Below are positions 19,088 to 50,038 of a stretch of 64,000 nucleotides of DNA, in pieces. Source of the stretch: Peribolospora baueri (lineage: Eukaryota); NCBI GenBank assembly GCA_029717555.1, contig JAMDHS010000002.1:186001-250000 (forward strand), in the 5' to 3' direction. Made by a program: the position numbers and the translations under genes. How positions within the stretch are numbered: position 1 is the first letter of the stretch; each line of letters opens with the position of its first letter. Below the pieces are notes generated by a model. That model did no database searches, was not told the DNA's origin, and saw only the letters and a list, made by a program, of their open reading frames with translations.

Positions 19088-20990
19088 ATGATGCAAGATG
19101 GCTCCCGGTCTCGCCCTTTCGTCTTGCGCGAAGAGTCTCCCTCTTGGTCGCCCGAATGCTCGATTCCCCGACGAGAAGAACACCGCAAGGCCACGTCCCT
19201 CGGTCGTCTCAGGCAGGCCTTTGCCAGGGTGGGGCTGTCCGGAGGCAAGAAGGACCAAGATGGTGTCAGACCGGGAGACAAGCCGCTGCCATCCCCGCCG
19301 CCAGCCGGAGTTCCAACTGAGAAGCGGCGCTATCCTCATCATCATCAGCAGCAACAGCAGCAACACACCTCTCGCCCACAGCAGCCCCCGCCAGCAGCAC
19401 CTCCCTCGGCGCCGCCGGCGGATCGGTATAGATTTCCTTCGACGGCGTCGGCAAACGTGTCTGCTCGCTTGCCCTTTGATAGCGCCGAATGCAATGTTCC
19501 CTCCCCGCTCCTCGCTTCTCCCAGACCTCTCGTCTCTCCCTATGATCCCTACCATACCTCGACGCCGTCGCCGTCTTCGTCCGGCCGACGACACTCAGGG
19601 CCGCCCTCGCCCGTTTTCCCGTTTGCCGGCGCGTCTCACTCGTCTGCCGCGCCGCCTTTGATGCTGATGCCTGAACCGAGGCCTTGGCAGCCGACGCACG
19701 GCTACTCCGTCTCCCTCCCGGCCGTTCCTCACCTCGCTTCTTCCGCCCTCGCTCCTCCCTCCCCGTCTCGGCCACCGAATCCCTCCAGACCGCATTCGAC
19801 AGGCCCTGCCCACGCTTCTCCGACGACCCCTGGCGCGAACAGCACGTCCGCAGCGTCGGCCGACAGGCGTGGCAAGGCCGGTCCGCATCGCCTCTCCCCG
19901 AACGCGGCGGGGGCCACCTCTCCTTCCCGACCTACTCCTTCCTCTGCGTCGCGGACGCCGAAGAAACAAAGCCCCAGTCCGTCCAAGAGCCCAGCCGCGG
20001 CGGCGCGCGGGTCGCCTTCGCCGAACGGGTTCCCAACAGAGTTGGACGAGCCGCCCGGACAGGGACAGTGTCACGGGGCGACGAAGGCGGGCAAGAGATG
20101 CACGAGGAAGGTGGCGACCAAGGAGCACGACGGCGACGAGAGGGATCCAGTGTTCTGTCACCAGCACATCAAGGATCTCCTCCGTCCGAGCGGGTTCTAT
20201 GTCGGCAACGACTGGATCGAGTTCTCGGACTGGATCGATCAGACGCTCACAGACGCCACCCAGGCTGCCCTACGCGTGGCCATGGAGAAGCCGGTCAGCG
20301 GCAAGGAAGAGCCAGGTGAGCAAGGCCCGCTAAGGTATGGGCGATGTGACCGACCGAACGGTCGTCTGTCCGTTCTCAAGCTAACCGACGGGACGGACGT
20401 GCGGTGCTCAGGGTTTATTTACATATACGAGCGCGAGAGGCCGAAGAACTCGAGTGCCAAGGACGTCGTGCTCAAAATCGGCAGGGCCGCCAACGTGGTG
20501 CGTACGACGAGCGCTCCGCCGAGATATGCTCGCCCCGGTTTTGTCTCCTAAGAGCGAATTCTTCCATCGTTTTCTCGAACAGTTCAAGCGAGTGGGTGAA
20601 TGGCAGTCTCAGTGCGGCAAAAAGATAGGTGCGCGAGAACGCTACGTTCGTGCGCGAAACGAACGCATCGTTCCCATCCGGAACTCAACTCGACCTCTTC
20701 TCTTAACCTTCTTGTGTGCTCCGCCACTAGTCCTCCGAGGCATCTTCCCCTCCCCACCCAACCAGAGCCTTCTAACAGGAGTTGCCGCCAACCCAGCCCA
20801 CAAAGCCAGGAACATTCACCGTGTGGAACGTCTCATCCACCTTCAGCTGCGGGAGCACCGCGAGCGACGAAGCTGTACGACGTGCGGGGCGTTGCATCGG
20901 GAGTGGTTCAAATTGCCGGACGATATGGATATTGATGACGTCAGGAGAATCGTTTGGATGTGGATAGAGTATTGCGATCGCCTGACTTGA
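19088..20990 (+). CDS. T5orf172/Mug113 (GIY-YIG-like) domain protein with long Pro/Ser-rich N-terminus
   Basis: CHGATKAGKRC...FCHQH zinc-binding-like motif; GFIYIYE; LKIGRAANV; EWQSQC; HRVERLIHLQL; CTTCGALHREWF. Confidence 0.75.
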
Positions 20991-32785: not shown

Positions 32786-35757
32786 ATGGCACCCAAGGGC
32801 GGAAAGGCGGCGAAGAAGGAGGTGGAGGAGAGCGAGGAGCCCCTCCAGGCTGTCATTCTCGCCGACAGCTTTAACTCGCGCTTCAAGCCGCTCACCGTCG
32901 ACAAGCCTCGGGTTAGTTTCTCATCAGTTGCCGGTTGAGCGGGCTGCATTTACGGGGGGTTCAACAGCTGATATCTTCTTCTCCGTTTGCCTCCCCCTCT
33001 GCCGCTTCCGTAGTGTCTCTTGCCCCTTTGCAATGTTCCTCTAATCGAATGGACTTTGGAATCCTTGGCTATCGCCGGCGTGGAGCAAGCTATTGTCTTC
33101 TGCAACGCTCATGCTGACAAGCTAAAGGCTTACCTCCAGTGAGCTCAATCATTCCATCGTGGACCTCCTTCGGTCCCGGACTTCGGTAAAAAAAAAAAAA
33201 AAAGAAAAAAAAAGAGAAAACATGCCTAAACCTCTCCATCTCTCCGGCGCTTCACAGCTCCTCCAAATGGTTTCTCCCCCAATCTGGTATGCGCCTCACC
33301 ATCATTGTCTCTGCCGAAGCCATGTCGGTGGGCGACGCGATGCGCGAGCTGGACGCCAAGAACTTGATCAAGTCCGATTTCATCCTCGTCTCCGGAGACG
33401 TTGTGAGCAACGTCGCCATTCGGGACGTCGTAGAAGAGCACAAGCGCAGGAGGAAGGTGGATAAGGACGCGATCATGACCATGGTCGTGAAAGAGGCTGG
33501 CCCCTTCCATCGAACAAGGTGAGCCCCTTTCGTTTTCTGCAACCTCATCACGCACGTAAACTGACATTTAGCTCCGATATCAGACCAATAGGTGACGCGT
33601 CTGTCTTTGTCCTGGACCCTTCCTCTTCCCAATGTCTCCATTACGAGCACGTCCCTGGCTATCCGCGGAAGAGACGTGTTAAGATCCCGGGGAGCATCCT
33701 CGAGGAGCACGCCGAGGTGCAATTCAGGAACGATCTGGTGGACTGTGGGATTGACATTTGTTCGATCGACGTGCGTGGTATCTGTGATTGACAAGGTTAG
33801 TCCCAGTCAGCAAGTCAAGTCTGACTTCTGCTCGTTTCCTTGTCACTGCAACAGGTGCCACCCCTCTTCTCCGAAAACTTCGACTACCAGGACATGCGTC
33901 GAGATTTCGTGAACGGCATCTTAACCTCGGATCTGCTCGACTCCAAGATCTTTGCTCACGTCGTCTCCGCGTCCCGAGGCTACGCGTCTCGGGTCAAGGA
34001 TCCGAAGAGCTACGATTCGGTCAGCCAAGATATCATGTCGCGATGGACTTTTCCTTTGGTGCCGGATGGAAACTTGCCTGGAGGCGACAGGTACTACCAG
34101 CGTCACGGTCATCAGTACATTGCCTCCGAGGGTGTCGTCCTATCCAGGTGGGTCTTTCGTTCAGGTGTACGCGACGAAACGTGACTGATGGGATAGGCCT
34201 CGCTCCATGCTACACCAGGACATGCAAGATCGGCTCAAACACTATGATCGGCGCAAGGAGTCGCGTTGGCGAGGACGTTCAACTCGATGCCTCCGTGCTG
34301 GGCCCAGATGTCAAGATCGGTTCGTCGAGCACCATCGCCGGCTCGTACCTGTGGCCGAGTGTCTCGATCGGCTCGAACTGTTCCATCGCCGACGCCATCC
34401 TCGGCGAAGGCGTCACCATCCTCGACGGCGTCACTCTGCATAAAGGCTGCCTCGTCGCCGGCGGTGTCACGGTCGGTCCGAATGTGATCGTTCCGCAGTA
34501 CTCTAAGGTATCCAAAGATGGTGCCGGGGGGGACGAGGACTGGGGAATAGATGAGGACAGTGACAATAAAGGTGAGGATTGTCACCTTTTCCTTCCGACA
34601 TGGACCGCGGCTGTTCCCGCCGCCAGTCCTAATCTTGCCCGTCTTCTGTCCTCTGCCACAGCGTCTAAAGTCATCAGAGACGACGCGTTGGGTGCTCAGG
34701 CAGTGGGTTTCTTCTGGCCCGGCGCTGATGAGGAAGACGTTTCGGAAAGTCAAGACGATGAAGACGAGGCTCAGAACGTGGCCTTGTCCAGACTAGGTGC
34801 GTCAAAGACTTCCAAACCTTCAGCCCCATCCCTGCAAAGACCTTGCTGAGGGCAGTGCGATGGTTCACTTCATTGGTCGATGACAGCCGTCGACACTTCC
34901 AAACTGGATCTGTCAGACTCTGCATCAACACTCTCTTCCATCTCGTACGCCACGGACGACGAAGCAGGCTCAGTCTTTTCGGGACGCTCGTTCGCGTCGT
35001 CGGCTGCAGAGAGGCCGATGCTGAGCGTGCCTACAGACGCGGACGCGGCCGCTTCGCGCATGGCTGACTTCCGCTCCGAAGCACGCCAGAGCCTGCAGAG
35101 GGCGTTCGACGAAGGACACACTGTGGAGAACGCTATGATCGAGCTCAAGACGCTCCGGATGGCTAGCAACGTGCCCTTGTCGGAGGTGAGGAAGGTTGTC
35201 ATGGCCGCCGTCCTGGGGAGGTGCGGGCCTCCGCCGGCCACGGGGGCTACGGAGAAGGTCGTGGCATCCAAGCTGGAGCCCGTGTTGGATCGCTGGGGCG
35301 GATTGATCGAGGCGACGGCAGCGGGAGACGAGGTGGATGCGATCCTTGCTCTTCAGGTGAGCAAGCTCTGGCTTTTTTGCATCGCCACTTCTCCATGTCG
35401 AATTGCCGTACAGTGACGCTGTCGGGACCTATATCAGGCCAGTCCGGCCAGTTTGCACTCTCGAGCTCACACACTGCTCTGTTCTCGAACGCCCCACTTT
35501 CTTTTTTACTCGCACACCAGCAATTCTGCTCCACTCAAGAAGGCTACTCCGCCGTCTTCATGCCCGCTCTCAAGCTCTACTACAGCAATGAGTACGTTTC
35601 GACGGCGTCTCTGGTAGACTGGTACAAGTCTCCTCTGTCTCGCTCGGTCGAGGAGATGGGCGAGGCGGGGAGGGAGTTGTGGGCGAAGGCGAAGGCGTTC
35701 GTCATGTGGGCTGTGGAGAACGAGGAGAGTGAGGATGAGGAGGACGAAAGCGAGTGA
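32786..35757 (+). CDS. GCD6: Translation initiation factor eIF2B epsilon subunit
   Basis: LQAVILADSFNSRFKPLT; DFILVSGDVVSN; FSENFDYQDMRRDFVNGIL; hexapeptide (LbH) repeats; IELKTLRMASN W2 domain; acidic tail. Confidence 0.95.
33188..33213 (+). repeat. Intronic poly(A) tract
   Basis: About 25 A residues interrupted by one G, inside a GCD6 intron. Confidence 0.85.
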
Positions 35758-36118
35758 TGGACTTGTATGGGGCGAGCACGCGTACCTGCGCCCAATGGCG
35801 ATGAAATGAGCTGGAGGAGCATGCACGTCTTTCGGACCGCTTCCCGCGTCCCGCTGATCACCGGTTCGACCTTTGGGGAATGTCTCTCTGCCTTTGGAAA
35901 CGGTGAAGGAAAGACCATCATGACCGTTACGCTGATTGACGTCAGGTCTGGGAGGAAAAGGCCAACGCGATCTGATCTTCGCCCGGCCTTCAATGCTGAG
36001 AGGGCAAATCGGCCCAGACAGCGATCCCTCTGGACACAATACAACGGCTTCGCAGGCTGCGGGCCTCCCTAAGTCGGTCGACGAGCAGCGCCGCCGGCAC
36101 TGCTTTCTCGTCCTCGTC

Positions 36119-36148
36119 CATCGTCATCGTCATCGTCATCGTCATCGT
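36119..36148 (+). repeat. (CATCGT)5 microsatellite
   Basis: Read directly from the sequence. Confidence 0.8.
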
Positions 36149-36975
36149 TTACAAGTCCTCCTCAACCCCGACCCTCTTCATCTGCCAACTCAGACACCGA
36201 GCGAGCTCTCTCCCCCACCGCTGTTACCCCCTTCGCCCGAACAAACAAACCTTCCAGCCCCCCCCTCCCCCTTTCTCGGCGCTTTTATGCAAGGTCAGGA
36301 AATGGAGTGACCGATTTTTTTATATTGTTTACCTTTGTGGCCTCTTGCACGCCCACATCCGGTCTGGCCCGGCCCGGCTGTTTAATGCAAAGGGTTCCAA
36401 GGGAGCCCGGCAAGTCGAGATATGGACAAAGTTGTGGGCGAGGAAGGAAGGACTTGGTGATGATAGCTCTTGTCTCGTGGCTGAGGCTCGCGGCCGTAAT
36501 GGGGCTCCAGTTTTTCTCCGACGAGGGACGCTCCGGGCTCTACTCGTCGCTAAGGAACGGCGCCCTACGCTGAAGGTACAACGAAAAGATTGTAATTCGT
36601 TTCGAGCTAAGAATGTCACAGCGGCGAAGAACGAACGAGACGTGACGGGGCAGACCAAGCAGACGGACACGTGCACGGAGGTGGGCGTATGTACGTGATC
36701 CAGGGAGGAAATAGGAAGGCGAAGGGAGGGGACAGAAGTAGAACGCTGGGTTGATGCAATTTTGTTTAGAAGCGAAGTGTCATTGACAGAGAAACAGTGG
36801 CGACATGTCAAATGTTGGTACGGGGATAAAAGGGGGCGAGGTCCGCCGCAAGAGCAGGAGATGAATTGTAACTGGCGGGACTGGAACACGAAAGAAAGGA
36901 GGGTGGGAGCCAGCCGGTGAAACCGTTACCCTCCTCGGCCTATCTCCGTCCTCATCCACATTACAGGCCCCCCGC

Positions 36976-37645
36976 CTAGTAGTAGTAGTAGTGGATGACG
37001 CGCCGACGCTGGCCGATGAGGAGGAGGATGCTGCATATGGTTCCAAAGCACGACGCGATGAAATGAGGTGTACAAAAAAAGGCAACGATGAATCGAAAGC
37101 GGATCGAAGACGGGCCAGAATGACAATGAATCAGGAACCGAAATGTGAGACACATGTCGATCTCCCCCGCCTGTGTACCGGATGCGCGTCACCTTGCTAC
37201 CAACCACACTCGGTACAGGCACTCACATGAGAAGCAGGGCTCTGCAGTAATGGCGATTTGGGAAGTGAAGAGAAGTGTCCACATTCCCGTCGTATCGTGC
37301 CCGAACAAGAGTTGGGGTGGAGCGATGTAAGGAGCGAGATGGACGGCAGAGAAAAGGGAGAAGGGCAAGGATAAATGTTGAAGACGTCAAGGTCAGTGAG
37401 AACAGAGCACGTCCCATCGCTACGACAGCCTGGCTGGTGAATGGCAAAAACTCTTCTTCTTTGATTCGCCTTCCCTTCTTGTCGGCGCTCTGATCGCCCA
37501 TGCACCCATCCATCCGTCCGTCCGTCCTCTGTGAAAGCCTCGTTCCGAATTCTCACAAACGCCCAAAACGCAAGGAAATAGCAGGCTGCGAATGAGACCG
37601 TCCTCGAAGGCGGACTCACATGATGATGATGGTAGAGGTGTCCAT
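36976..37645 (-). CDS. Predicted 31-aa single-pass membrane microprotein MDTSTIIIIALLLIILLLIGQRRRVIHYYYY
   Basis: Exons 37645-37620, 37241-37227 and 37030-36976. Both introns have GTGAGT donors and TGCAG acceptors, both are phase 2, and the join gives one continuous hydrophobic helix. Confidence 0.7.
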
Positions 37646-39068
37646 ATTGCTCAGCGAGAAGGGATCGTCAGCGGGAGAGCGTGATGATCGCGGGCTGCTG
37701 CTGCTGCGGTCTCGCTTCACGGGGGCGTAAGAAGAGTAATCGTAGTCGTCGTAGTTCCGAATGATGGGCGGAGAGGCGGAGAGAGAGAGAGGGATCGAAG
37801 CGGTGGGATGTAGGGAACCGTGGGTGCACGCCGATGCCGCCGATCTTTGTTGTGTGTCTGGCTTGAGGGGCCCGGTTGTGCGCTGCTCAAGAGGGAGGCG
37901 CGAGAGCGTGTGCGGTGGTGAAACCAGAGCGAGCCGCGCAGGCAGATGGATATGCTGTGGGCGGGTATAGCGTGACAAGTATCCTAGATCCGAGTTATGC
38001 GTCCGACTTCGAGGACAGGCGAGAGATGGATGTAGAAGGGAAGGGAGACGTGGGTGAGCGTGGAGCGTCAGTGGCGAGGAAGAGGGTAGGCGGAAGGGGA
38101 ATGGAGATGTGCTGTGCCGTAGCTCACAATAGAAGCGGGGACTTGTGTCGTTTCCTTTCGTTTCGTTCTTCAAGGTGGTGGAAGGAAGGAGAATGGCTGG
38201 AGAGGAGATGAGGCGAGTGTCGCGCGACGCCGATGACGATCGTCCTCAGTGTGCCTGGCAGGCGTACACGACGGCATACGTCAGCTACGCCGCGGAACGT
38301 CGGCTATTTGGAGGAGACTGCGGATGGCTGCGGGATGACGCAAGCAGGACGTGCGCCGTGGCGCTCTCTCAAAGGGAATGTTTCAGACAAGCCAGAGCGT
38401 CTCGAGTGTGCAACCCCGAAAGGGGAGATTGAACGACGCACGAGCCGAAGGGCTGCCGCAAAGATGAGGCCTGGGCCAGGCGAGATGAAGTAAGCAAGAG
38501 AGCTCTGTTCAGGATAGATACCGATCAGCAACCTGCGTCCCAGACCGTCGCTTCGGCCTGTGCCTGTGAGTTTTTACATGGCTCAGAGGAAGAAGGGGAG
38601 CGGGAGAGCGGAGAAGGAAGGTGGGCGGGAATCGGCAAGGAAGTGGGCGAGGGAGGAGGGAAGGAAGGAAGGAAGGTGAACGATTGTGGGGTGTGGATGC
38701 GGCGGAAATCATGGGTGGGCAGGGTCCGTGCGAGAAGCACTCAGAGCACGAAGGGAAGGAGGGGCGGACGAGGAGTAGAAGCCGTGGCTGGTGAAGTGAC
38801 AACCGGATCGGACAAGGAAACGTCAAGGAGAACCGGGCGCTGGATTAACTATGTGTGCCTCGCAAACAAACGAGGCTGGGGCTTGCTTGCTCGCTGGAGT
38901 TCAATAATGTCGGGGAGGCAACGGCATAGGAGAAGGAAGAATGGAGATAGGTCGATGAAGGAAGAAGAGGTATATGGAGACACGGCAAGAGAAAGAAAAG
39001 GAAGGGCGGATTGGGAGAGGGAGGCGACGCAGCAAAAGGACCCAAGGTCGACGTCCGAGCAGCATTCT

Positions 39069-40950
39069 TCACTTGCCGGCCTTGTTGTGGGTGTTTTGGT
39101 AGACGACGACGCCGACGACGACACCGATGACTGCGGGTGCGATGGAAGTACCGGGAACGTACAGGGAACGGCACGACCGAAGAAAGCGGCGAGTGAGCGA
39201 CGCGATCGAGGACGAGAGGCGACCGGGACGGGCTGAGACGAAAACGCGACAAAAGTCAAGGCGCTGCTAAGCAAGCAAGCGATGGACTCACTGATGAGGA
39301 TGATGAGGATGATGAAGAAACAGATCCACCGCTTCTTGCGCGCTTTCCTCGCCGACACCTTGGCCTTTTCCGTGTGCTTGTAGCTGCAGTCGAGGAGAGA
39401 CGAAGTGAAGACGGTCAGAACTTGGTGGCGACTGAGGCGTGGCGGTATTGCCCGCTAGAGAACGAGCAAGGGAAGTCCACGACTGGACACCTACCCCTCC
39501 TCCATGTCCGTGTTGACTTGGGCAGCGTGCGTCTCGATGTCTTGCAGAGCCTCGTCGTCCCTCTCAACCAACTGTTGAATGAGAAGGCGCGACGGTCAGA
39601 CTGGAGGCCTCACACGGACGGCATGAGAACACGAAGAACAAGCTCCCCACTTACCATAGCCATCTGAATTGTGGGAAGGAAATGAAAAAAGACGACAAAA
39701 AAAGAGAGTAAAAAAAAACCGCGGATGGATCGATCAGTCGAGGCCTCGCCTTGTATCTTTCCCGGGAGACGCACCTCGTTGAAGAGCTGGGCAAGCTCGG
39801 TGATGGTCTGCTCGATCTTGCGAATGTCCTCGTGCCTCTCCTGAACCTCTCTATACGCCGCCCTGGCGTCGCCCTGACGGTTCGAGTTGAGGAGCGCCTG
39901 GGAGAAGATCTGGCCTCCCTGATCGTCGTCGAGGGCGGCCTTGATCTCCTGCTGCGTCGCGTCCGGCTTGACGATCCGGTACTGGCGCTCCATCCTCTGG
40001 CGGTACTTCTGACGGTACTGCTGTTCGACCTGCTGGTATCGCTGGATCGTCTCCATAAACCGGTTCTTGACCGCCCCCACTTGCGTCCTCCGCACGTTCA
40101 CGTCTCCGCCAGGCGGCATCTTTGAGTTCTGCTGCTCGAGCGTCTTGATCTTGCTCTTGACGGTATTGGTTAGTCGGCTCGTCTCGGTGATCACGCTGTT
40201 GAGCTGGGCGTGCGCCTGCTGCGACTGGGCCTCGTCCATGTTGTTGAGCGTGCGCGAATGGAGATCCGAAATGCGGTTGACGTTGTCGTCGATCGAGCGG
40301 ACCGCGTCTTGCAGGTCGGAGATCTGAGAGACAGAACGAAAAGCGGTTCAGCATGCCATCCATGCGCCCGGTATGTCACCGATGCCGAGTCACGGTAGGA
40401 CCCCTCTCTCTTTCCTATGCCACCGCGTCGCTCGGCAACTAGAGGAGGAAAGGAGGGTTCACTGGCTGGCGTATCGTCTTTCTTTCCTGGGGGAATGAAC
40501 GAGAGAACGTGTGAAGCTCACCTCGCCGAAGAAGGCGGTCATATCATTCGGTGCTGCCGCGCCGTTGCCACCGACCGGCGTCATCTCGTATCCATGGGTC
40601 GGACCGCCGGCGGGGGCACCGCCATAACCGCCTCCATCGCCACCGTATCCACCGTATTGGTTCTGTTCACCGCCGTATCCGCCATACTGGTTCTGTCCAC
40701 CGCCGTATCCGCCATACTGATTCTGTCCACCGCCGTATCCGCCATACTGGTTCTGACCTCCAGCGATTCCGCTATACTGGTTCTGATCACCGCCGATTCC
40801 GCCATAGCCCCCAGCGTTGCCTTGCTGCGCCTTTCGAATGAGAAGAGATGGTGAGCGACACGAGCTCGATCTCCCTTGCATTCCTTCTTCCCTCTTTGAG
40901 CCTTCTCGTTCGAAACTCACCCTGAGCGCGGCGAGACGGTCGCGAGCCAT
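39069..40950 (-). CDS. SSO: Plasma-membrane syntaxin (Sso-type Qa-SNARE), paralog A
   Basis: MARDRLAALR; Habc region (RQYRIVKPDAT); EVQERHEDIRKIEQTITELAQLFNE; ARKARKKRWIC followed by a TM tail ending NKAGK*. Confidence 0.93.
40640..40800 (-). repeat. 30-nt coding tandem repeat, about 5 copies of GGQNQYGGYG, in Sso paralog A
   Basis: Repeated ccgccgtatccgccatactggttctgtcca units on the + strand. Confidence 0.9.
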
Positions 40951-42397
40951 TTCTTAATAGAGTGAAGGGGGTGAAGGGGCGAAGGAGGATGGGGTGGGAA
41001 GGAAGACGGGGATGGAGGCGCGAAGGAAGGAGGAAGGCTCGTGACGGTGGGGCGTGGCGAGCGTTGGACGGGAGACGACGCCACTGGGGGGATGGGGGTG
41101 TCACCTATTTGCGTGCCTGCCTTTGTGTACGAAAGGAGGACCGGGGGCCGGGGGACGGGGGACGGTGGGTGATGGAGGGGAGGAGAGGAGGCGGTGGTGT
41201 CTCAGGAAGGAGCAGTGCGAGCGACGATGGCGAGAGGGCGCGGGCGAGGAGCGGAGGCGGAGGGGGAAGGAAAGAAAGAATAACTGACCTCATTAGCCCT
41301 TCGGCTAGACCTTCTGCTTACCGCCCTCTAATTCCTCTAGACACGTTCTAGCTTCGCGCGCTCTTTGTAATGGCCCATTAACATCTTGCACTTACGCGTC
41401 CCGCCTAGCCCATCTTACCACTTCCTAACTGCTGCTGCGGCACCCTCGGCCTCTCTTCGTCCTGGACCCATTGACCGATTCGATTTGCCTGCGTTAATCC
41501 TTCAAGGACGACCTCCGGGACTGCAACGCCGAGCTTACGTAGCCACGCCACGCCGTCGCCGCCGCAGTCGGCCGCTCCTCCCGCTCCGTCGCAGCTCGCC
41601 GCAGCGCAGCCAGGGGCCGAGACGATGGCGATGATAAGATACCTGCAATACACATCTAGATCACGCCCGGGCGGTGCTGTCTCACCCGCTTCCGAACCCA
41701 CCGACACACGCTCCCCTGTACCGCCATCGCCCGCGCCCCTCCTCGAATTTGCCACTGCCACTTCGCCACACGGACCCATTCAAGACACCGACTCCGACAC
41801 CGAACTCGGACCCACCGCCCCCTCCACTCGATCTGATCCCGACCCGACCCGTAAACGTGGCCCGAGTCCGGCCCCCATAGGCCCTGGTGAGAAACTGAAA
41901 GAGAGAGAGCGAGGCACACACACACACAGAGAAAGAGAGAGAGAGAGTAGCAGCAGCAGCGACCATCCGTCTCCCGTCTCTGCCGAACTGGGCGTTGCTG
42001 TCTCAAAGTTTGTTTGTCCAACCGGGCCGGCCCACCTCAGACCGGTCGGCTTTGTCCGCGGGCCGTTCAGTCGTCCCAGCAGATCAAGGAAGAAGGGAGG
42101 GAAGGAAGGAAGGAAGACGCCGTGTTCTGAACAAGTCTTCGGCGTTCCTCGACTCAAGTGTCGCGCCGTAATGACAACCCCCCCGGCGACCCACGCTTTA
42201 CAGGCCACACGCCACTGGCATTGCCTGGATGAAAGGTGACAAGGAGGCAGGATCGCCTACAGCGTAGCCATCGTCCAAAGAAAGCGAACAAAATGGGAAA
42301 GAAAAGGGGTTTCGGAAGCGGGGAGAATGCGGCTAAGGCAAAGGAGCGCACAGAGGGAAAGCAAAGCAAGCGGCCGGGTGAAGGTAGCGGGCCATGA

Positions 42398-44545
42398 TCA
42401 ATTCTTGGACTTGACGGCGAAGAAGATGATGATAACCAAGACTGTAACGGTGCGAGGAGACGAAAGGAGACCGGATCTGAGCATTTCCGCCTCGCCAACG
42501 CGCCGGCCGCCTCGAAAAGGCGAGCAAACGGCCAGATAGCTATGCCTGTCGGGACCGTACGGAACGACGACTCACTGATGATAGCGATGATGAGGATGAC
42601 GAGGCAGATCCAGCGCTTCTTTCGCGCAGCCATGGCGGACGTCTTGGCCTTGTCGAGCTCTTCGAGGCTGTCGAAGCGGGGTGAGCGCATCATAGGGGCC
42701 AAGTCAGCGTGAGTGCGGGGTGGACACCGACTGATTCGGCAGCGCAAGGTAGACAAGCGACGGAGGAGCGAGGACAAGACCGCCGCTCACCCTTTCTCCA
42801 CATCGCGGTTCACCTCTTCGGCCTTGGTCTCGATGACCTCGAGAGCCTCGTCTTGTTGCTCGACGAGCTGAAAACGACACGGTGAAAAAACCCGTCAGCA
42901 CCCATCGCGTTGCACAACGACAAACCCTCGACGGGAACGATGACGACGATAATTGCACACGGAACACACTCACGATGGACATCTGGTTGTAGGAAGGGAG
43001 GGAGGTCACGACGAGTAACGCATCGGCCAGTTAACGATCCGAACCCACTCAGCCGCCGGCTCATCCTACCACGGGGAACCTGTGTCGCCGGCTCGTACGC
43101 ACCTCGTTAAAGAGCTGCGCGAGCTCGGTGATGGTCCTCTCGATCTTCTTGATGTCCTCGTGCCTCTCCTGCACCTCCTTCAGTGCTGCCTTCGCCTCCC
43201 CCTGCCTGTTCGAGTTCAACAGCGCCTGCGAGAACACCTGCGTGCTCCCAGAATCGTCCTCCAGCGCCGCCCTGATCTCCTGCTGCGTCGCGTCCGGCTT
43301 GACGATCTTGTACTGGCGTTCCATGCGCTGTCTGTACTTGGCCCGGTACTGCTGCTCGGTGCGCTGGTAGGCCTGGATCGTCTCCATGAACGTGCGCTTC
43401 ACTGTCTCCACCTGGAGGGTGACGTGTGTCAAGGAAGAGCGGAAACATGGCCGAAGAGCCGGTTCGTAAATCAGGGATGGGATATGGGACGCGGCGAGAG
43501 CTTGCCGTCAAGAGAGAATTGGACGGGGAAGCGTGCCGCTTACCTGCGTCTTCCGGATACGGAGGTCTCCACACGCCTTCATCCTCGCGTTCTCCACCTC
43601 GAGATGCTTGATCTTGCTCTTAAGAGCGCCGGTCAAGCTCCTCGTCTCCTCCGCGATTCCCTCCAGCTCGGCGACGGCTTGTTGCGCTTGCGCGTCGTCG
43701 ATGCTGGACAGGCTGCGCTGGTGGAGGTCCGAGATGCGGTCCACGTTGTCTTTCATCGCTCGGATGGCGTCTTGGATATCGCTGATCTGAATCGCGTCAA
43801 AACGAAATCCGAGTCAACGTAAACCCGTGAGTCGCAAGTCAGACAGAAATCAAGCGGTCGTGCTCGTGATGGAGGAAGCTGCATCTGGTCCCTCCTCTCC
43901 ACGCAACCGATCCTCACCTCGCCAAAGAATTGCTGCAGATCACCGCCGATACCACCGTTAGCAGGAGCAGGAGCAGCGACTGCTGCCGTGACGGCCGGAG
44001 TCCGAGATGGAATGGGGGGACTAAAAGGGCTCGTGACCCTTTCGTTCTCTCCTCCACGTTCCGACGCTTCTCCTCCATCGACACCATTGGGACCTTCATC
44101 GTCCTGCTGGGCGTACGGGTTCGGCCTCCTTGCGTGGGCGGGGAGAGCAGCGGCCGGAGACGAGTAGTCGCTGAGGGAGCGGAGACGAGAATGGAAGGCA
44201 AGGGAGGGGACGCACGTGAGCCAGTGGTTCGGGACAGGGGACAGGAGAGCTGCGCAGCTAGGTTTCTCTCACTTGTTCAGCGGTGGGTTTGATTCCTGAC
44301 TGCCGTAGCCACCGGCCTGGGCCTGCTGAGCCTGAGGAAAGAATGAGCCGAAAGACGGGTTCGGTTCAGCGGTCTGCGCTCGAGTAGATTGAGTCTCTGA
44401 CCGTGAGCGCATCCTTCCGTCCCAGCTCGTTTTTTAACACCTTTCTGCCGCCCTTCCCCTGTCTCTCATCGTCGCCGCAGGCCGACTCCCACTGCCAGCG
44501 AACCCGATCGCTCACCCTCAAAGCTGCGAGACGGTCGCGCGCCAT
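42398..44545 (-). CDS. SSO: Plasma-membrane syntaxin (Sso-type Qa-SNARE), paralog B
   Basis: MARDRLAALR; NPYAQQDD; RQYKIVKPDAT; EVQERHEDIKKIERTITELAQLFNE|MSI|LVEQQDE; ARKKRWIC followed by a TM tail ending KSKN*. Confidence 0.93.
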
Positions 44546-48368: not shown

Positions 48369-49354
48369 ATGGACAGCTTCATCAACAAGGCTAAGGAGTT
48401 CGCCAACTCCGACCAGGGCAAGAACATGTGAGTCCTCGCTCCCTGTCCTGCCCCACCTACACCTCTTTCCTCCCGCGAACCCTTCCTGCGACGACGGGGT
48501 TGTTCAGCCGATGTCACCCTCGACGAGCCGGATGACGGAACTGATCGACCTCTCCTCGCTGTCGATCGATCACGTGCCGCCGCATTCGACTCGCGTAGGA
48601 TCAACCAGGCTGAAGGCGTGAGTATGCGGTCTGCTCTCCTTTCCACCCCGTCGGTCCCTCTCCTGCCGTCCTCATGTTCCCCTGCTTACCCTCCTTCCCT
48701 TTCTCCCTACTCGCCCCGTAGCGCTTTGGTCTCGGCGGCGGCAACAACTCTGGCAACCAGGGCGGTTTCGGCGGCAACGACAGCTGTGGGTACCCTGACC
48801 ATCCTTATGTCCTCGCAAACAGCCACTGACGATCATACTGTGCTCCACCTATGAAATCGACAGCCTCCGGCAACCAGGGTGGCTTCAACGACAACAACAA
48901 CAACTCCAGCTTTGGCGGCTTCGGCGGCAACAGCGACTCCTACGGCTCCGGCCGCAACCAGGGCAGTGACTCCTACTCCAGCGGCAACAACAACAACTCC
49001 AGCTCTGGCGGCTTCGGCGGCAACAGCGACTCCTACGGCTCTGGCCGCAACCAGGGTGGTGACTCCTACTCCAGCGGCAACACCGACTCCTACGGCTCTG
49101 GCCGCAACCAGGGCGGCAACCAGGGCGGTTTCGGCGGCAACAACAACGACTCCTACGGCTCTGACCGCAACCAGGGCGGCAACCAGGGCGGTTTCGGCGG
49201 CAACAACAACAACGACTCCTACGGCTCTGACCGCAACCAGGGCGGCAACCAGGGCGGTTTCGGCGGCAACAACAACAACGACTCCTACGGCTCTGACCGC
49301 AACCAGGGCGGCAACCAGGGCGGTTACGGCGGCAACGACAACCAGAACTTCTAA
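48369..49354 (+). CDS. Gly/Asn/Ser/Gln-rich repeat protein of about 210 aa (hydrophilin/prion-like)
   Basis: Exons 48369-48427, 48599-48617, 48722-48785 and 48864-49354 give MDSFINKAKEFANSDQGKNMINQAEGRFGLGG followed by DSYGS(G/D)RNQGG repeats; strong GGC/AAC/TCC codon bias. Confidence 0.8.
49085..49340 (+). repeat. Coding tandem repeat of about 63-66 nt (DSYGSDRNQGGNQGGFGGNNN), about 4 copies
   Basis: Near-identical gactcctacggctctgaccgcaaccagggcggcaaccagggcggtttcggcggcaacaac units. Confidence 0.9.
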
Positions 49355-50038
49355 GCGCGTTCCTTCTTCTTCGAGGTCACGGTCGACGAGCGGCCCGTGG
49401 CCGTCCTTCGAAAGCATGGCTTTCTTCTCTCGTGTCGGCGCTTCCCGATCGCACTTGTCGTCTCGTCTCCTTTCCTCCCTCCCCTAGCCTCCTTTGGTTT
49501 GTCTTGTTGTAACTTTCAGCGTTGTTGAGGAATGGATACGAAATAAGGAACGAACGAACGAACGAGCGAGCGAGCTTTTTTGCTTGCATTTGTGTGTGTG
49601 GCCGTTGGAAGGGAACTAACTGGACGGTAACGGAGCGTCGTGGTCGTCTGCTTCGCTTCGCTCTCTCCGCGCGCGTCCGCTACCCACGTGCTTTCCGGTG
49701 GGAGGTGGTCATAATTAGACAGATGAATAGATAGGGAGATAGAAAGATGATCAAGAACTGGGTCACATTAGCTTGGCCATTGTGCACGGGCTTTCTTTAT
49801 AATACAGTCAGCCCGATGGAGATAACCTACTCCGTAGCCGGTCGTATCCGTATGTGCGGGAGGAGACCGAAGAAAGGGAATCAAGAGAAAGTGGAGAGAT
49901 CGCGACGCAAGGGAAGAGCGAGGTGCGCGATGGAGAGACGAGAACGAAAGTGAAGATGGCGTGCGAAGAAGAAAGAGGAAGCGAGGGCGGATGACCGCAT
50001 GGCGGCGCGCTGGGACGGGTCCTTGGGCTATTCAGCGT

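Follow-up and report, generated by a model that had tools for sequence, protein, structure and literature searches.

The 3.3-kb gap between the stop codon of an eIF2B-epsilon gene and that of an Sso-type syntaxin gene in the window (the whole 64-kb stretch of Peribolospora baueri DNA that was analysed) carries on its minus strand a candidate three-exon gene for a peptide of 31 residues. The reading tentatively preferred here is that of a twice-spliced smORF gene, probably young and lineage-restricted, which encodes a single-pass membrane peptide. Transcription, splicing, translation, topology and function of the candidate are predictions from sequence elements, which are listed together with the neighbouring genes in Table 1.

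Table 1. Elements of the candidate gene and the genes on either side of it, in the direction of minus-strand reading.
Feature	Position	Strand	Remarks
Second syntaxin	~42560-44545	-	Tandem, more divergent paralogue; start 44545
Sso-type syntaxin, first copy	38852-40347	-	Pfam; start 40950; stop ~39063 by direct reading
ATG-free leader	37646..38277	-	Taken as promoter and 5' UTR; includes CT-rich tract at ~37793-37766
Start ATG	37645-37643	-	Context AGCAATATGG; read directly
Exon 1, coding part	37620..37645	-	ATG and 23 nt, with (ATC)n run at 3' end; phase-2 donor
Intron 1, 378 nt	37242..37619	-	GTGAGT donor at 37619; GTGAGTCC to TACTGCAG; TGCAG acceptor
Exon 2, 15-nt symmetric microexon	37227..37241	-	Codes for the middle part of the hydrophobic run
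Intron 2, 196 nt	37031..37226	-	GTGAGT donor at 37226; GTGAGTGC to ATATGCAG; TGCAG acceptor
Exon 3, coding part	36976..37030	-	Remaining hydrophobic run, Gly-Gln, three Arg, short linker, four Tyr, TAG
Exon 3 end	36978-36976 (TAG)	-	(TAC)4 then TAG; period-3 repeat at 36977-36992 covers Tyr tail and stop
Putative 3' UTR	36750..36975	-	A-rich TAAACAAAATTG at ~36768-36757, possible poly(A) region; tentative assignment
eIF2B-epsilon	stop at 35757	+	Pfam; borders the gap

Joining of the three exons by coordinate with a script gave a coding sequence (CDS) of 96 nt, in which 31 codons run uninterrupted to the stop. Both introns are in phase 2, and the ten bases TCATGTGAGT are common to both donors. 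In the unspliced RNA the frame would run for only 9 codons, and each GTGAGT donor creates an in-frame TGA. Direct reading showed that each exon is aliphatic in a single frame; in the remaining two, exon 3 is Ser/Thr-rich or Pro/His-rich. The preliminary description of this DNA had proposed the same ATG, donors, acceptors and stop, and all of them were found by direct reading at the minus-strand positions it gave, as was the symmetry of the 15-nt middle exon. The 14 aliphatic residues that it counted were confirmed with an enumeration script as the longest hydrophobic run of the peptide. It had also called the surrounding region empty, and the gap proved to be real: among 58 stop-to-stop frames of at least 40 aa, Pfam gave no match in the gap apart from the SNARE exon of the syntaxin at its edge, and two rows remained below threshold (E 0.019 and 0.097).

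Rfam gave no match at gathering score in the window and none at E <=1 on the minus strand of the gap. The latter strand is rich in C+T (1,905 of 3,261 bases). A repeat or mobile element was rejected by comparison of the gap with the rest of the window, which revealed no common repeat family, just short CT-rich matches.

The best matches of the first syntaxin showed 74-78% identity over about three quarters of the query, with one at 81% over 64%, and its named matches are from Violaceomyces, Moesziomyces, Thecaphora, Sporisorium and Testicularia, which places the window in the smut-fungus subphylum. The second syntaxin is ~51% identical to the Violaceomyces protein, to which the first copy is 75% identical. 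At its N-terminus, the first syntaxin (40459-40953, minus strand) has a long Gly/Tyr/Gln/Asn-rich repeat with units of the GGYGG-QNQY type. This prion-like extension of low complexity precedes the syntaxin domain; a length of ~400 residues is also seen in related syntaxins of smut fungi. Elsewhere in the window, an open frame at 20385-20987 of the plus strand includes a T5orf172 / MUG113 domain (GIY-YIG-like; E 6.7e-10).

Two features of the first syntaxin gene are relevant to the architecture of the candidate. Alignment of the SNARE region with those of six homologues requires a 9-nt microexon of three codons (39663-39655, minus strand), which is flanked by introns of ~110 nt and 83 nt; hence, very small exons are in use in this genome. 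The membrane helix of the same protein is split by a 161-nt intron (39291-39131), whose 5' junction reads TCA-GTGAGTCC and whose long 3' part is rich in pyrimidines. A functional link between the candidate and the co-oriented syntaxins is speculative.

The candidate ATG ends an ATG-free stretch of 632 nt, the longest on either strand of the window, with no minus-strand ATG in any frame between 38277 and 37645. For comparison, the minus strand of the window contains 841 ATGs, which are 76 nt apart on average, and 3.5 ATGs were expected in the leader from the local dinucleotide content (probability of none, ~0.03). The syntaxin starts at 44545 and 40950 likewise end ATG deserts, of 523 nt and 343 nt, respectively. 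The candidate ATG has A at position -3 and G at +4, and a purine at -3 with G at +4 is found at both syntaxin starts as well. Neither the ATG desert nor the start context had been used in picking the pattern. Among the other ATG deserts of at least 450 nt, just 1 of 11 ends at a known start codon; thus, an ATG desert is no proof of a gene. Another stretch, at 48836-49417, is free of ATG for ~570-580 nt on both strands at once.

The two candidate donors are the only GTGAGT hexamers on the minus strand in 35800-39060. In the window as a whole GTGAGT is the commonest donor hexamer, with 73 copies, and begins 16 of 33 heuristic introns, while CAG ends 28 of the 33. The heuristic set of 33 donor-acceptor pairs is noisy, with some pairs spanning two real introns; therefore its median of 219 nt was set aside, and the homology-supported syntaxin introns were used for comparison. 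At 378 and 196 nt, both candidate introns exceed the length of the three introns of that kind (83-161 nt), and the presence of two introns within a 96-nt CDS is unusual a priori.

The one canonical CTRAY motif of intron 1, CTGAC at 37396, is 151 nt away from the acceptor, and a looser TTCAC is 24 nt away from it. The sole canonical motif of intron 2 (CTGAT at 37134) lies 100 nt from the 3' splice site, with looser CTCAT and TTCAT motifs 33 and 28 nt from the acceptor. In two syntaxin introns, canonical branch motifs are located 24 and 31 nt from the acceptor. Each candidate acceptor is the first AG past the only canonical CTRAY of its own intron and closes an AG-free stretch of 178 nt in intron 1, the longest of the gap, or 131 nt in intron 2. 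The 3.26-kb gap has 7 AG-free tracts of more than 100 nt that end in AG; such tracts are thus common there and lend little weight to the candidate acceptors.

For the estimation of coding signal, a codon table was compiled from 1,602 codons of Pfam-supported exons. The spliced candidate frame scored 20.0 bits, above all 126 real 31-codon windows, and the other two frames of the spliced sequence scored -13.6 and -9.1 bits. Among 185 structures that start from the ATG at 37645 with relaxed donors, the candidate model has the highest codon log-likelihood. Two longer models were rejected on the same scale. In one of 95 residues, with an acceptor at 37434 and a 185-nt first intron, the 64 extra residues cut the score from 20.0 to 9.5 bits, and a 95-codon frame from the ATG at 37513 gave -9.5 bits.

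However, about half of the candidate CDS is trinucleotide microsatellite of the (ATC)n, (CTC)n and (TAC)n types, and the codon score comes mostly from ATC, CTC and TAC codons within these repeats. Inside the CDS, Tandem Repeats Finder reported just the (TAC)n at 36977-36992, and the (ATC)n and (CTC)n runs were recognised by direct reading. All CDS repeats are of period 3, as against periods of 6, 8, 8, 5 and 4 for the other Tandem Repeats Finder tracts in 35758-39062, which gives a small further hint of coding. Three more rows of the same program are at 39102-39170, in the last exon and intron of the syntaxin.

On the opposite strand of the gap, a (TCGTCA)n repeat (36096-36155) translates into alternating Ile and Val residues, with a score of 14.2 bits over 20 codons. 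Its (TCGTCA)6.7 portion at 36108-36148 (plus strand) mimics strong codon bias and is a warning for smORF calls in this genome. Since this non-genic repeat scores alike, the codon score and the hydrophobic run of the candidate are largely one observation, and repeats can yield both. With score and helix explained in this way, what remains is the phase agreement, i.e. the ATG and four splice sites pick the aliphatic frame three times. As judged by direct reading of the frames, the chance of such agreement of three exons is ~1 in 27.

To estimate the rarity of the whole arrangement, all micro-ORFs of 20-80 aa that begin with ATG and contain two introns were enumerated on either strand of the 64-kb window; donors had to be GTGAGT and acceptors YAG, and intron length was set to 45-500 nt. 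A hydrophobic run of at least 14 residues was present in 1 of the 329 enumerated structures, which is the candidate. When looser donors or a single intron were permitted, only two loci were added, and these are the real intron-split membrane anchors of both syntaxins; hence, on this window the enumeration finds real helices and nothing spurious. Markov models of order 5, fitted to the whole window, and of orders 3 and 4, fitted to the gap, gave no match in 450 simulated 64-kb sequences, 150 per model. In 23 fungal metagenome loci (330,214 nt, both strands), there was none among 1,449 structures with GTGAGT donors or among 3,155 with GT[AG]AGT donors.

In a further control, exons and introns were placed at random, with the real sequence and its repeats kept and splice motifs ignored. 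A run of at least 14 residues was reached by 4 of 100,000 placements on the minus strand of the gap, by 14 of 100,000 on the whole minus strand and by 169 of 100,000 on the whole plus strand, where real membrane-coding exons of an ABC-transporter gene (Pfam ABC_tran) may contribute. The placement rate multiplied by the available consensus structures corresponds to ~0.01 to a few hundredths chance matches per window, which is rare, yet has to be reckoned with when many windows are scanned and the pattern is chosen after reading.

These data bear on the explanation that the gap is untranscribed or is promoter or terminator DNA, in which pyrimidine-rich microsatellites happen to lie beside two GTGAGT hexamers in Ile/Leu phases. 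This would account for the Tyr tail and the stop, which are microsatellite, and for the equally coding-looking (TCGTCA)n repeat elsewhere in the gap. The gap abounds in pyrimidine tracts with AG at their end, and the candidate introns are of atypical length, their canonical branch motifs lying far from the acceptors. The phase agreement amounts to ~1 in 27, and with a pattern chosen post hoc from a very large scan, rare coincidences are to be expected somewhere. The tendency of T-rich non-genic DNA to encode membrane segments, which is described in a study of yeast ORFs (PMC7005711), is in line with this explanation. It is opposed by the low rate in the enumeration, the simulations, the other fungal DNA and the random placements in the gap. 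Furthermore, the longest ATG desert and the purine at -3 with G at +4, both outside the selection, fit a real start, and both of the only two minus-strand GTGAGT hexamers of the gap are used. On balance, a chance origin of the pattern appears somewhat unlikely. The earlier judgement that four matching splice sites are unlikely by chance is thus borne out as regards their rarity in controls and is weakened by the trinucleotide repeats that make up about half of the CDS. If the pattern is nevertheless due to chance, it provides a useful calibration, as it would show that splice hexamers beside trinucleotide repeats mimic a coding-looking hydrophobic smORF.

A second alternative is a spliced non-coding or promoter-associated transcript, in which the 31-codon frame would be incidental and either untranslated or functionless, a proto-gene at most. 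Tiny exons and long introns in a gene-free gap fit the architecture of an lncRNA or a host gene, and the exons are repeat-rich, as in unconstrained sequence. Moreover, unspliced RNA offers the 9-codon frame only, and no homologue was found in collections that are without close relatives. According to a passage of a review of the hidden genome of fungi (PMC11413187), translated and incidental sORFs are hard to tell apart, and in a study cited there a peptide was detectable for 9 of 373 presumed fission-yeast sORFs.

The introns of the candidate, however, host nothing of the kind that such a transcript might carry. A snoRNA host was rejected, as there was no Rfam match and the minus strand of the gap is devoid of C-box motifs. 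Structured intron RNA was rejected because the introns fold no better than shuffled sequences (z = +0.38 for intron 1 and +1.0 for intron 2), and a telomerase RNA because no telomerase-type template is present. A non-coding transcript also leaves unexplained both the phase agreement and the arrangement of a first AUG in good context. It is therefore considered unlikely. On the plus strand of the gap, in an element at 36457-36573, a GTGATGA C-box-like motif is followed 113 nt later by CTGA, with a further CTGA at ~36481. This element bears a weak likeness to a box C/D snoRNA, with no Rfam match and a terminal stem of only 3 bp.

Conservation was sought in several collections. A degenerate pattern for 10 residues of exon 3 had no match in metagenome contigs. 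Syntaxin-anchored metagenome loci, of which 137 were confirmed and 80 kept, are mostly transcript-sized and show an identity of <=61%; at this distance, blastn of the 80 loci against the gap revealed none alike. The protein-word query was a 40-aa contiguous translation that holds 17 residues of exon 3 and served as a stand-in for the spliced peptide. In a collection without close relatives, no protein of 22-70 or 71-2000 residues shared three 5-residue words with this stand-in.

The frame upstream of exon 1 had been described as free of an earlier ATG, which is correct, and as open to 38173, but it extends to 38245 (stop-to-stop frame 37616..38245). Read in frame, the leader scored -6.3 bits over 200 codons, with a C content of 0.41, 0.42 and 0.41 at the three codon positions. 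Being devoid of coding signal, it shows that the candidate ATG is not mid-way in a longer exon, and the concern of the preliminary description that the exons could be the tail of a longer protein was not borne out, either here or by the contiguous exon-3 stand-in, which had no word matches in the protein collection above. A decayed third syntaxin copy was rejected, as tblastn with six homologues gave no match in 35800-39060 up to E 10 and Pfam gave none in the gap. An alternative 3' end of the syntaxin was rejected by direct reading, as the syntaxin donor phases read exons 2 and 3 in non-hydrophobic frames. Hence, a larger gene that includes the exons, be it as the tail of a longer protein, the 95-residue variant, the syntaxin 3' end or a decayed syntaxin, is highly improbable: the upstream frame is open for 200 codons, but has a negative score and neither codon-position bias nor ATG; the model with the 185-nt first intron is possible, but its score drops to 9.5 bits and that of the frame from ATG 37513 to -9.5; and the junction of exon 1 resembles that of the syntaxin membrane helix, but there is no syntaxin match by tblastn in 35800-39060, no Pfam match in the 58 frames, no protein of 71-2000 residues with three 5-residue words of the stand-in and no hydrophobic reading of exons 2 and 3 in the syntaxin donor phases.

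Under the preferred reading, a small membrane-peptide gene, transcription would begin in the CT-rich, ATG-free leader ~100-150 nt upstream of the ATG at 37645. Splicing from the GTGAGT donors to the CAG acceptors would remove both phase-2 introns and keep the 15-nt microexon. The predicted product starts with a five-residue polar N-terminus, which is followed by 14 Ile/Leu/Ala residues and by a 12-residue Arg-rich, Tyr-ended tail that begins with Gly-Gln. Since the peptide is too short to leave the ribosome before termination, its insertion as a single-pass helix would be post-translational. Composition suggests an N-out/C-in topology, in which the N-terminus would be outside and, by the positive-inside rule, the Arg/Tyr tail cytosolic. 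The hydrophobic core of 14 residues is short for a bilayer span. By analogy with small proteolipids, the peptide may serve a larger membrane protein as an accessory or regulatory subunit.

A more specific proposal, which is put forward as doubtful, is that the gene is specific to the species or genus and arose de novo from microsatellite-rich intergenic DNA, with the helix assembled from three exons that include a 15-nt microexon. If so, without the 15-nt exon the hydrophobic run would shrink from 14 to ~10 residues, and splicing would switch the peptide between a membrane-competent form and a soluble or degraded one. In addition, slippage in the in-frame (ATC), (CTC) and (TAC) repeats could tune the length of the helix and the tail between strains.

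Should the membrane-peptide gene be real, it would represent an unannotatable class of fungal genes, in which less than 100 nt of coding sequence is distributed over three exons within 670 bp. It would also imply that spliced membrane microproteins are missed by standard gene finders in intron-rich basidiomycetes and would make de novo gene birth from pyrimidine-rich repeats amenable to study in a spliced gene.

The closest parallel as regards origin is with yeast 'TM-first' ORFs such as YBR196C-A. The study that describes them (PMC7005711) indicates that thymine- or pyrimidine-rich intergenic DNA encodes membrane-like segments by chance. Like the candidate, these ORFs are short and repeat-rich and contain a membrane-type segment; they arose in pyrimidine/thymine-rich non-genic DNA and are without detectable homologues. 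The candidate for its part lies in a C+T-rich gap, and no homologue of it was found in the collections without close relatives. In contrast to the candidate, whose helix would be assembled from three exons, the yeast ORFs described there are unspliced and single-exon (PMC7005711). The literature on 'TM-first' ORFs (PMC7005711) fits the proto-gene and the chance readings alike.

The membrane anchors of the Sso-type syntaxins, which are encoded 2 kb away in the same orientation, resemble the candidate in that a GTGAGT intron interrupts the coding sequence of an Ile/Leu-rich helix. In the syntaxins, however, the helix is C-terminal and lies behind a basic patch, whereas the order in the candidate is reversed, and tblastn with six homologues found no residual syntaxin similarity in it.

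Among animal proteins, sarcolipin, a SERCA regulin of 31 residues with an aromatic C-terminal end, has the same length as the candidate, and SERCA regulins of this type share with it a single helix and an Arg/Tyr-containing end. These proteins are metazoan, and their aromatic tail is luminal, opposite to the orientation proposed for the candidate; homology is not expected.

Pmp1 and Pmp2 of yeast are plasma-membrane proteolipids that are partners of the H+-ATPase; they are known from budding yeasts and are unspliced. They are fungal proteins of ~30-40 residues, in which a single helix follows a very short N-terminus and leads into a basic C-terminal tail in the cytosol. In contrast to this budding-yeast family, which is unspliced and without a Tyr tail, the candidate would have both introns and a Tyr tail. 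Thus, the candidate, with its 31 residues, 14-residue aliphatic run and three Arg residues, is similar to Pmp1 and Pmp2 in architecture only.
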